Assembly (NCBI GenBank): GCA_036002485.1
Contig: DASYTI010000019.1
Coordinates: 11,990 to 75,989 of the forward strand
DNA length: 64,000 nucleotides
Reading direction: 5' to 3'
Origin: Candidatus Methylomirabilota bacterium
GTDB lineage: Bacteria; Methylomirabilota; Methylomirabilia; Rokubacteriales; CSP1-6
The notes under the pieces were generated by a model. That model saw nothing but the letters and a program-made list of their open reading frames with translations, was not told the origin of the DNA and did no database searches. A program made the translations under genes and the position numbers. Shown here one piece after another: positions 32,892 to 42,969 of this stretch. How positions within the stretch are numbered: the first letter of the stretch is position 1; the number at the start of each line of letters is the position of its first letter.

Positions 32892-34154
32892 CTAGGGATA
32901 GAGGCCGCGGACCTGGTGGGCGTCGGCCACGCGTCGCACGCCCTCCATGAGGGCGGCCGTGCGCAGGTCGACGTGCTCTTTCTTCGAGATGTTCCACACG
33001 CGGGCGAACGCGCGCGCCATGATCTCCTGCAGGCGGCTGGTGATCTCACTCTCTTTCCAGAAGAAGAACTGCAGGCCCTGCACCCACTCGAAGTAGGACA
33101 CGACGACGCCCCCGGCATTGGCGAGGATGTCCGGGATGACCAGGATGCCGCGATTGTGAAGGATGACATCGGCCTCGGGCGTGGTGGGGCCGTTGGCGCC
33201 CTCGACGACGATCTTGGCCTGGATCCGGTCGGCGTTGTCCTCGCGGATCTGCGACCCCGTGGCCGCGGGCAGCAGGATGTCGCACGGCTGCTCGAGGATG
33301 TCCTTGTTGGAGATGGCGTCGGCTCCAGGGAAGCCGCTGACGCTCCCCGCCTCCTTGCTGTGCTGCTCGAGGGCCCGGACATCCAGCCCCTGGCTGTTCC
33401 AGACACCGCCTCGGTAGTCGCTCACGCCCAGGATCAGGGCCCCGTCGCGCCAGAGCATGCGCGCGGCCACTCCGCCCACATTGCCGAAGCCCTGGACGAC
33501 GACCTTCCTGCCTTTGATCTCTTGTCCCAGGCGATGGACGGCCTGGTAGAGCACGTAGACGATGCCGCGTCCTGTCGCTTCACGGCGACCCGCGGAGCCG
33601 CCGACGAGGAGCGGCTTGCCCGTGACGACGCCCGGCACGCTCTTCCCCTGGGTCATCGAGTACGTATCCATCATCCAGGCCATCGTCTGCTCGTCGGTGC
33701 CCAGGTCGGGGGCGGGGATGTCGAGATCGGGACCGATCATCAGGATGATCTCCGCCGTGTAGCGGCGGGTCAGCGCTTCCAGCTCTCGCTTCGACATGTT
33801 GCGCGGGGTGCACCGCACGCCGCCCTTGGCGCCGCCATAGGGCAGGCCCATGAGCGAGCACTTCCAGCTCATCAGCATGGCGAGCGCGCTCACCTCGCCC
33901 ATGCTGACCTCGGCGTCGTAGCGCAGGCCGCCCTTGGTCGGGCCGAGTGCCGTGTTGTGGTGGACGCGATAGCCCATGAAGACTTCCGTGTGCCCGCTGT
34001 CCATTCTGACGGGGACCGAGACCACCAGGGCCCGGCGCGGGTAGCGGAGGCGGATGTGCGTGTCATGGTCGAGATGCAGACGCTCCGCCACCTGGTCCAG
34101 CTGAGCCACGGCGGTCCGGTGCATCTCGGATTCGAATTCCGGCATCTCGGCCAT
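32892..34154 (-). CDS. gdhA: NAD(P)-specific glutamate dehydrogenase
   Basis: Start [10 protein letters not shown]. Conserved GLPYGGAKGG catalytic Lys-Gly motif and the GFGNVG Rossmann motif. ATG overlaps the glgX stop (TGATG). Confidence 0.9.
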   Translation of the reverse strand: MAEMPEFESEMHRTAVAQLDQVAERLHLDHDTHIRLRYPRRALVVSVPVRMDSGHTEVFMGYRVHHNTALGPTKGGLRYDAEVSMGEVSALAMLMSWKCSLMGLPYGGAKGGVRCTPRNMSKRELEALTRRYTAEIILMIGPDLDIPAPDLGTDEQTMAWMMDTYSMTQGKSVPGVVTGKPLLVGGSAGRREATGRGIVYVLYQAVHRLGQEIKGRKVVVQGFGNVGGVAARMLWRDGALILGVSDYRGGVWNSQGLDVRALEQHSKEAGSVSGFPGADAISNKDILEQPCDILLPAATGSQIREDNADRIQAKIVVEGANGPTTPEADVILHNRGILVIPDILANAGGVVVSYFEWVQGLQFFFWKESEITSRLQEIMARAFARVWNISKKEHVDLRTAALMEGVRRVADAHQVRGLYP

Positions 34155-41473: not shown

Positions 41474-42969
41474 ACGTCCCCCGCGGGCTTGCCGAGGTTG
41501 CGGAGAAGATCGCCGGCCGTGGGGCTGTCGGCGAAGAGCTGGCGGACGTGCGCCTCGGTCCCGCGAAGCGGCTCGAGCATGAAGATCTTCTTGAGCGGGC
41601 CTTCCTTGAGGTCGAAGATCACCGAGTCCCACGAGGCGGACACGACTTCGTCGGCGTACTTCTGCAGGCACATGCCGCGGAAGTAGGCCCGGGTGTCCTT
41701 GGGCGGGTCATAGATCGCCTTGGTCACTTCGTCCTCGGTGGTGAGCCGCTCGACGGCGTCGGACTCCTCGAGCTTGTAGTAGAGACCCTTGCCCGGACGA
41801 ATGTCGTGATACTGCAGGTCGATCATGGCCACGCGGGAGTCGGACCACTCGAGCCCGTGCTTGGCCATGTAGCTCTGGATCAGCGCCTGCTTGATCACCC
41901 AGTCCAGCTCCCGATCGAGGCTCATGGGGTCCTTGGCCAGCTGATCCAGCACGGTGCCCCAGCGCAGCATGACGTCGTCGACCCACGGCTCGTGCTCGCG
42001 TCCGGCGTAGTAGCGCTGGGCCAGGGCGAGGTACTCGCGCTGCAGATCCACGGCGGTGAGCGCGCGGCCATCCTTGAGCCGGAACGTCTCCCGGCAGGTG
42101 AGATCCCGCGAGACCTTCCGATACGCCAGCACCGGGCTCTCCAGCGAGAGGTCGCGCTCGATGAAATCGTCCTCGATCATGCTGAGGGCGATGGCCATGG
42201 TGCCGACCTTGAGGTAGTTGGAGACCTCGCTCATGTTCGCGTCGCCCACGATCACGTGCAGGCGGCGATAGCGCTCGGGGTCGGCGTGGGGCTCGTCGCG
42301 GGTATTGATGATGGGTCGGCTGTGCATCGTTTCCAGACCGACCTCGGTCTCGAGGAAGTCGGCCCGCTGGGAGATCTGATAGTCGCAGTGCTCGGTGTTG
42401 TTCTCGGCCCCCACCTTGCCCGACCCCGTGAAGACCTGGCGGCTCACGAAGAAGGGCATGAGGTGCTGGACGATGCGCGCGAAGGGCACCTTGCGGTCCA
42501 TGAGGTAGTTCTCGTGGGTGCCGTAGGAGTTGCCCTTGGAGTCCGTGTTGTTCTTGTAGATGAGGATCCGCTGCTCGGGCGGCGACACCGCCTCCGCCCG
42601 TGAGCGCGCCAGATTCAGGATGCGCTCGCCCGCTCGGTCCCAGATGACGCAATCGCGCGGATTGGTCGTCTCGGGGGAGGAGTATTCAGGGTGGGCGTGG
42701 TCGACGTAGAAGCGGGCGCCGTTGGAGAGGATGAGGTTGATCAGGCGCGACTCTTCCTTGGAGGGCGCCTCCTTCTCCTCCATGTACTCGAAGCCTCGCG
42801 CGTCGCGCAGGGGGCTCTCCGCCTCGTAGTCCCAGCGGATACGTGAGGACCGGTAGGTCTCGTACGAGTTGATGAGCAGGAGAGACGAGAGAATCGGATT
42901 GAAGTCGGGCTGGTTCTTGACCGTGATGCCGTACTCGGTCTCGATGCCCATCACCTTCGGAATCGCCAT
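41470..42969 (-). CDS. dop: Pup deamidase/depupylase Dop
   Basis: MAIPKVMGIETEYGI plus the Dop-specific RWDYEAESPLRDARGF region. 499 aa. Confidence 0.85.
   Translation of the reverse strand: MAIPKVMGIETEYGITVKNQPDFNPILSSLLLINSYETYRSSRIRWDYEAESPLRDARGFEYMEEKEAPSKEESRLINLILSNGARFYVDHAHPEYSSPETTNPRDCVIWDRAGERILNLARSRAEAVSPPEQRILIYKNNTDSKGNSYGTHENYLMDRKVPFARIVQHLMPFFVSRQVFTGSGKVGAENNTEHCDYQISQRADFLETEVGLETMHSRPIINTRDEPHADPERYRRLHVIVGDANMSEVSNYLKVGTMAIALSMIEDDFIERDLSLESPVLAYRKVSRDLTCRETFRLKDGRALTAVDLQREYLALAQRYYAGREHEPWVDDVMLRWGTVLDQLAKDPMSLDRELDWVIKQALIQSYMAKHGLEWSDSRVAMIDLQYHDIRPGKGLYYKLEESDAVERLTTEDEVTKAIYDPPKDTRAYFRGMCLQKYADEVVSASWDSVIFDLKEGPLKKIFMLEPLRGTEAHVRQLFADSPTAGDLLRNLGKPAGDV

Follow-up and report, generated by a model that had tools for sequence, protein, structure and literature searches.

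What joins the genes of a bacterial proteasome to genes of glycogen and glutamate metabolism when all of them follow one another on a single strand, and what does such a union do? We addressed this question in a 64-kb stretch of DNA (hereafter the window) from Candidatus Rokubacteria (Methylomirabilota), an uncultured soil phylum, with a GC content of ~0.61-0.70 per 2-kb interval. On its minus strand, a compact Pup-proteasome locus, arc-dop-prcB-prcA-pafA, is followed by a glgB-glgX-gdh trio for glycogen branching and debranching enzymes and glutamate dehydrogenase (GDH). We treat the two sets as module 1 and module 2, respectively. With slightly better than even confidence, we read the block as a lineage-specific fusion of these two separately conserved modules in one Rokubacteria sub-lineage, in which the trio is probably transcribed by read-through.

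Gene content and junctions of the block

Gene identities were based on Pfam domains and on NCBIfam equivalog models with curated cut-offs. In the direction of transcription, the block consists of the following features.

43047-44876, minus strand: arc/mpa, proteasomal AAA ATPase, 609 aa (TIGR03689, 750 bits vs cut-off 505)
41470-42969, minus strand: dop, depupylase/deamidase, 499 aa (Pfam; TIGR03688, 630 bits vs cut-off 492)
40661-41473, minus strand: prcB, proteasome beta subunit, 270 aa, GTG start (TIGR03690, 309 bits vs cut-off 192)
39969-40661, minus strand: prcA, proteasome alpha subunit, 230 aa (TIGR03691, 321 bits vs cut-off 139)
38546-39901, minus strand: pafA, Pup ligase, 451 aa (Pfam; TIGR03686, 628 bits vs cut-off 551)
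38515-38545, minus strand: pafA-glgB spacer, 31 nt, the seam of the two modules
36313-38514, minus strand: glgB, 1,4-alpha-glucan branching enzyme, 733 aa (Pfam; NF003811, 1011 bits vs cut-off 741)
34154-36307, minus strand: glgX, glycogen debranching enzyme, 717 aa, GTG start (Pfam; TIGR02100, 1022 bits vs cut-off 641)
32892-34154, minus strand: gdh, glutamate dehydrogenase, 420 aa (both ELFV domains, Pfam)

The paralogues Dop and PafA were readily distinguished, the 499-aa protein scoring 630 bits on the Dop model vs 427 on the PafA model and the 451-aa protein 628 bits on the PafA model vs 435 on the Dop model. The arc product carries AAA, Prot_ATP_ID_OB_N and Prot_ATP_ID_OB_C domains (Pfam) and ends in ...NTGQYL, with the GQYL docking motif conserved. 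In the PrcB translation, an N-terminal propeptide ends in ...PHG and is followed by TTV, of which the threonine after the propeptide is presumably catalytic. The best NCBIfam match of the GDH was the archaeal-type model GdhA_Arch, at 488 bits and under that model's cut-off of 750, and it scored only 269 bits on the E. coli-type NADP-GDH model. Judged by these scores, it is not of the E. coli NADP-GdhA type, and "gdhA" is a loose label.

The initial annotation had placed eight genes in the interval 32892-42969. That interval holds seven, and the seven genes that were named are all present on the minus strand by Pfam and NCBIfam; the eighth is arc/mpa, which lies outside it, 77 nt upstream of dop. 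The six junctions reported earlier (-4, -1, +67, +31, +5 and -1) proved exact when the sequence was read again, which gave arc/dop +77, dop/prcB -4 (GTGA), prcB/prcA -1 (TGATG), prcA/pafA +67, pafA/glgB +31, glgB/glgX +5 and glgX/gdh -1 (TGATG). The five proteasome genes are contiguous, with no unrelated ORF between prcA and pafA. Overlaps of stop and start codons are confined to the interiors of the modules (dop/prcB/prcA and glgX/gdh) and do not occur at the pafA/glgB boundary, so the translational coupling of protein degradation to carbon and nitrogen metabolism suggested at first was overstated. Other co-directional runs in the window are equally tight, with 4-nt gaps and 4-nt overlaps even between functionally unrelated genes (a 4-nt gap at thioesterase/YebC and -4 at ruvA/ruvB, for example), and packing alone therefore carries little information.

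The pafA-glgB join occurs in a single Rokubacteria clade

For comparison, 160 loci were fetched by PafA, 31 of them Rokubacteria-like (PafA at least 80% identical) and 129 others, mostly actinobacterial; a further 11 loci were fetched around GlgX homologues. The window PafA was 97% identical to that of a Candidatus Methylomirabilota metagenome-assembled genome (MAG), 85-92% identical to those of three Candidatus Rokubacteria MAGs and 100% identical to that of a metagenome contig, and its next relatives, from Acidimicrobiia and other actinobacteria, shared 60-65% identity. The pafA-glgB join was present in 11 related loci. In L001, L081, L082, L083, L104 and L121, glgB came directly after pafA, followed by glgX and gdh as well where the contig sufficed; L161, L162, L163/L164 and L168, found via GlgX homologues, had the same pafA-glgB-glgX-gdh arrangement. 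The spacer between pafA and glgB measured 25-49 nt in these loci, and the overlaps inside the modules were kept. The joined loci formed a single clade in a neighbour-joining tree of PafA and split into two subclades in the GlgB, GlgX and GDH trees. Across them, identity to the window spanned 65-92% for GlgB and 77-91% for GDH; the fall to ~73% for GlgB and 77% for GDH suggests roughly genus-level depth for the join.

The trio was absent after pafA from 17 other Rokubacteria loci, each of which has at least 1.5 kb of downstream sequence, and in the 129 non-Rokubacteria loci no homologue of glgB, glgX or gdh lay within 10 kb. The adjacency was seen in one Rokubacteria PafA clade only and was not conserved across phylogenetically distant genomes. 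The synteny that the initial annotation had proposed to look for in relatives thus exists in the 11 joined loci and is missing from the 17 others. Its statement that the linkage is not a described feature of Pup-proteasome loci agrees with a literature search, which gave no paper describing it.

What follows pafA elsewhere in Rokubacteria is diverse. Another clade has a bactofilin pair at this place, confirmed by Pfam in L003 (4437-5432) and L088 (6049-6941) and matched by ORF pairs in L085-L087 and L089. Genes for an HpcH aldolase and a luciferase-like oxidoreductase follow pafA in L084, a convergent AAA_14/DUF4143 gene follows it in L002, and a gene for a cNMP-binding metallo-beta-lactamase protein in L004. 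The DNA downstream of gdh is variable too, with a DAO-type oxidoreductase, an ABC transporter or lgt in relatives and a hairpin plus an orphan ORF in the window. Same-strand genes for a DAO-type FAD oxidoreductase were noted after gdh in L161 (13430-14578), L162 (13425-14573) and L163 (15408-16556). In L161 and L162, where this gene follows gdh directly, the block would reach nine genes; as a candidate ninth member it is absent from the window and so falls outside the conserved block.

On the other side of the locus, a divergent SBP_bac_5 gene upstream of arc was conserved at least as widely as the join, which means that neutral synteny can persist at such evolutionary depth. Separately, in L095, L099 and L100 a pafA gene (86% identical; 9086-10438 in L099) stood with no arc, dop or prcBA matches up to 9-10 kb upstream, as either an orphan copy or part of a dispersed locus.

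The two modules are separable

Two loci separate what the window unites. The glgB-glgX-gdh trio of L167, 72-78% identical to that of the window and placed with the L083/L168 subclade, has no proteasome genes upstream. Exactly between pafA and glgB of L140 sits an opposite-strand ORF of 333 aa (930-1931, minus strand), lower in GC and of no known family. The lone trio and the split seam together show that the two modules can exist apart.

A further arrangement was found in L165 (PafA 93% identical), where an acyltransferase gene and then a mechanosensitive-channel-like gene stand between pafA and treY-glgB-glgX-treZ ... glgE-treS-mak. In this locus (L165 1-22184), an alpha-glucan/trehalose cluster of ~18 kb thus begins two genes past the proteasome locus, an arrangement that may be akin to the neighbourhood from which that of the window arose. 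Other GlgX homologues lay in treY-glgX-treZ clusters far from any proteasome gene. In this part of the phylum, the proteasome locus has evidently neighboured alpha-glucan genes in more ways than one, and the arrangement in the window looks like a compaction of an alpha-glucan neighbourhood. A rearrangement or deletion in a region that already had alpha-glucan genes beside the proteasome locus is the probable origin of the join.

Probable transcription across the pafA-glgB seam

Same-strand genes less than 50 nt apart usually share one operon, and the co-transcription of pafA with glgB-glgX-gdh proposed in the initial annotation is plausible. The 31-nt spacer, scanned for the terminator or promoter that had been named as evidence against a link, showed no signal of either. 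It had no significant structure (fold z = 0.13), as was also true of the prcA/pafA gap (z = -1.06), and its sequence was not conserved among relatives. A sigma-70 consensus scan gave no promoter-like match in the spacer or ahead of glgB, and TTGAC was absent from the last 300 nt of pafA plus the spacer in 10/10 glgB-linked loci examined. Promoters embedded in the 3' ends of pafA or arc, sought through synonymous-site conservation, gave no signal, and in pafA such conservation was no higher in glgB-linked loci than in other loci. From dop to gdh, all genes lie on the same strand with gaps of -4 to +67, and the sole strong hairpin with a T-rich tail lies outside this stretch, after arc; the genome does use recognisable hairpin-plus-T terminators, as at that site. 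With no terminator or promoter discernible in the spacer, read-through from the proteasome genes is the most likely way in which the trio is transcribed. Translational coupling would act only inside each module.

Several observations weigh against this reading. The sigma-70 scan was also blank before the stand-alone trio of L167 and is thus insensitive to whatever promoter serves it there, and an internal promoter might lie within pafA. Across the pafA stop codon (38578..38553) lies a weak hairpin, with a T-rich tail, that could terminate some transcripts. The split in L140 implies that the trio can apparently be expressed without directly abutting pafA. Finally, retention of the join at approximately genus-level divergence, while the DNA after gdh varies, could reflect selection.

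The blank scan before the stand-alone trio of L167, the weak hairpin and the split in L140 also fit an alternative in which the join is a positional juxtaposition of two transcripts, the proteasome unit ending at pafA and the trio having its own promoter inside the 3' coding part of pafA. Two further features agree with it. The pafA/glgB junction never overlaps, unlike the junctions inside the modules, and the GC content at third codon positions (GC3) differs slightly, at 0.90-0.92 in arc, dop, prcA and pafA (the 4/5 proteasome-locus ORFs that passed the GC3 filter) vs 0.84-0.86 in glgB, glgX and gdh. However, shuffled sequence folds as stably as the hairpin at the end of pafA (z = 0.13), whose bases are also under coding constraint, the spacer is just 25-49 nt long in all 11 loci, and the 3' end of pafA has neither a TTGAC-type motif nor synonymous-site conservation specific to glgB-linked loci. 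Loci in which pafA truly ends the operon look different: in those of the bactofilin type, the spacer after pafA extends over 150-200 nt and contains hairpins and a conserved TTGACAC-N-TGCTA promoter-like motif. We regard separate transcripts as possible but doubtful.

Downstream, the unit in the window meets a second structured element.

32715-32892, minus strand: imperfect inverted repeat forming a hairpin of ~170 nt, directly after the gdh stop

This hairpin (z = -2.85; 1/200 shuffles folded as well) faces a convergent ORF of 354 aa (31648-32712, plus strand) whose N-terminus is hydrophobic and which matched neither Pfam nor NCBIfam, and the hairpin probably marks the 3' end of the unit in this genome. 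Considered as a repeated or mobile element, it was rejected, being present in a single copy in the window and missing from relatives.

Transcription signals around arc

Upstream of arc lies a 438-nt region shared with the divergent SBP_bac_5 gene. Two promoter-like elements were found there, and a hairpin follows arc.

45158-45173, minus strand: sigma-54-like -24/-12 element TGGCACCGAACGTGCT, ~280 nt upstream of the arc start codon
44966-44996, minus strand: sigma-70-like promoter CTTGACTT-N17-TATACT, ~90 nt upstream of arc
42995-43041, minus strand: GC-rich hairpin with a 13-bp stem, then a T-rich tail, GTTTGTTCTC, directly after the arc stop

The sigma-70-like element was the sole promoter-like match in 32500-45500 (1 match vs 0.02 expected). 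Its TTGACTT box was invariant in 9/9 Rokubacteria loci, including the distant L004, L084 and L090, and its TATACT box was kept in all nine save for one base in L004. Motifs of the TGGCACCGAACGTGCT type had 2 matches in the window vs 0.19 expected. The core TGGCAC-N6-TGC(T/A) was invariant in the window, L161, L162, L163, L168 and L083 and approximate in L090, with variable flanks. L090 has no glgB join, and near-presence of the motif there assigns it to the proteasome module. To our knowledge, the actinobacteria, presumed donors of the locus, have no sigma-54; no sigma-54 activator was found among the ORFs scanned across the window. The second sigma-54-like match (1572-1587, minus strand) lies elsewhere, close to where a MalK-like ABC ATPase gene begins.

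The hairpin after arc was stronger than any other T-tailed hairpin of the block (z = -3.87; 0/200 shuffles folded as well). It emerged from a custom hairpin scan, which was used since the loop limit of 8 nt in a standard terminator scan missed the longer loop of this hairpin. A GC-rich hairpin was kept after arc in 11 Rokubacteria loci with differing stem sequences, followed in most by a T-rich run. An intrinsic terminator or attenuator is the likely role of this element. The dop start codon lies only ~30 nt further on, and the 3' end of arc had no conserved promoter-like motif and no signal of synonymous-site conservation; no Rfam family matched in the 30-47 kb region of the window. In the simplest reading, dop and the genes downstream would be expressed via partial read-through past the hairpin, which looks like a device setting the ratio of arc to downstream gene expression. 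In the mechanism that we favour, the conserved promoters upstream of arc would drive module 1, and the hairpin after arc probably attenuates transcription before it continues into the remaining genes.

Is the join under selection?

A different account holds that the join was selected as an adaptive starvation operon, in which proteolysis, glutamate catabolism by GDH and glycogen remodelling are needed together, or in which the three enzymes are substrates of the Pup-proteasome. The arc promoters, of which one is sigma-54-like, would provide common control by driving all of these genes on one transcript. The conserved sigma-54-like element is in keeping with this, but its approximate occurrence in the join-less L090 makes it a property of the proteasome module. 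The join persists in two subclades even though GlgB and GlgX have diverged to ~73-75% identity and the region after gdh has been reshuffled, and the different arrangement of L165 still sets the proteasome locus beside a large alpha-glucan cluster; on the other side, the SBP_bac_5 neighbour is conserved at least as widely, so that neutral synteny survives this depth, and the trio stands alone in L167. The linkage is also missing from the 17 other Rokubacteria pafA loci and from 129/129 non-Rokubacteria loci, and the gene after pafA is highly variable.

The window GDH is nearest to archaeal-type models rather than to the assimilatory NADP type of E. coli, and some enzymes of the archaeal-type class are catabolic. 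By recycling amino acids, the mycobacterial Pup-proteasome system helps cells to survive nitrogen starvation, and it also influences enzymes of nitrogen assimilation (PMC8223512). Literature searches gave no report of pupylation of GlgB, GlgX or GDH, however, and a direct mechanistic link between pupylation and these enzymes is speculative, not supported by the evidence obtained. We consider a selected starvation operon unlikely. Under the fusion reading, co-expression is likely the only demonstrable consequence of the join, and the pattern fits a fusion that may be neutral.

Search for a pup gene

The dop/prcB overlap at 41470-41473 (GTGA) leaves no room for pup between dop and prcB, where the non-Rokubacteria comparison loci carry a pup ORF (91 candidates). 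In the Rokubacteria locus more generally, these two genes either overlap or abut. No plausible pup was found among window ORFs of at least 30 aa ending in G-Q/E, the two matches being off-frame, low-complexity reads. A Pup hidden Markov model built from 79 Pup sequences of the non-Rokubacteria comparison loci recovered Pup at E ~1e-30 in control loci and gave no match in the window, in the 31 Rokubacteria loci of the PafA scan or in the 11 GlgX-homologue loci. The search for pup covered ~40 Rokubacteria loci (L001-L004, L081-L104, L117, L121, L140 and L161-L171), and no UBact was found in the 64-kb window or beside the proteasome and pupylation genes of these loci. The other components of pupylation are intact, and Pup is presumably encoded elsewhere in the genome or has a form that is not recognisable. 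That a Rokubacteria proteasome whose locus lost Pup in cis or never had it, under tandem sigma-54/sigma-70 promoters and an attenuator after arc, was recruited in one sub-lineage into a nutrient-starvation operon with glycogen enzymes and a catabolic GDH is improbable.

Comparison with known systems

The actinobacterial locus has the rigidly conserved order mpa ... dop-pup-prcB-prcA ... pafA-pafBC (PMC3511204; PMC8223512). The window has arc/mpa, dop, prcB, prcA and pafA in the same order, and the terminator-like hairpin that follows arc recalls the separate mpa operon of actinobacteria (PMC3511204). In contrast to the actinobacterial locus, it has no pup between dop and prcB and no pafBC among the window ORFs scanned, its five genes are contiguous, glgB-glgX-gdh is appended, and the host belongs to Rokubacteria/Methylomirabilota. 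Acidimicrobiales have been proposed as donors, by horizontal transfer, of the Pup-proteasome loci of Nitrospirae (Leptospirillum) (PMC3511204). As in that case, the closest out-of-phylum relatives of the window PafA are Acidimicrobiia, at the 60-65% identity given above, and module 1 was most likely acquired horizontally from Acidimicrobiia-like actinobacteria. We take candidate division NC10 to be the same group as Methylomirabilota. Dop/PafA homologues have been sporadically noted in that division (PMC7947786). Beyond this mention, the literature searched on Rokubacteria and Methylomirabilota proteasomes held nothing relevant, and no description was found of the Rokubacteria architecture, a single compact block that lacks pup in cis and has metabolic genes added to it.

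The trio, too, has partial counterparts. In the glgBXCAP operon of E. coli, glgX directly follows glgB on the same strand after a gap of a few nucleotides. The window likewise has glgB and then glgX on one strand (+5), but gdh follows glgX with a 1-nt overlap. Neither the block nor the ORFs scanned over the 64-kb window yielded glgC, glgA or glgP; the scan gave only a generic GT4 glycosyltransferase at 27114-28388. Another counterpart is the rokubacterial treY-glgX/treX-treZ ... glgE-treS-mak cluster, whose GlgX is 73-76% identical to that of the window; the alpha-glucan clusters of L165 and L170 also encode a GlgB 74-75% identical to the window's. Unlike this cluster, the window holds only glgB and glgX of the set, fused to pafA, and gdh replaces treZ.

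Implications

The result mainly documents a variant of the Pup-proteasome locus in an abundant uncultured soil phylum, of which we found no published description: compact, pup-less, with conserved promoter and attenuator signals and with variable appended genes. More intriguing leads than the join are the absence of pup from the locus and the conserved sigma-54-like promoter, and for pupylation specialists the missing pup is likely the more testable one. If the proteasome had been recruited into a starvation operon, regulated proteolysis would be wired to carbon-store and amino-acid catabolism, possibly with a non-canonical tag, a connection not known from Actinobacteria. An adaptive operon, if true, would fit the view, based on mycobacteria, that nutrient recycling in starvation is a task of the bacterial proteasome. 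If the read-through operon is real and adaptive, the block would offer a natural example of proteasome genes under common regulation with enzymes of carbon storage and nitrogen catabolism.

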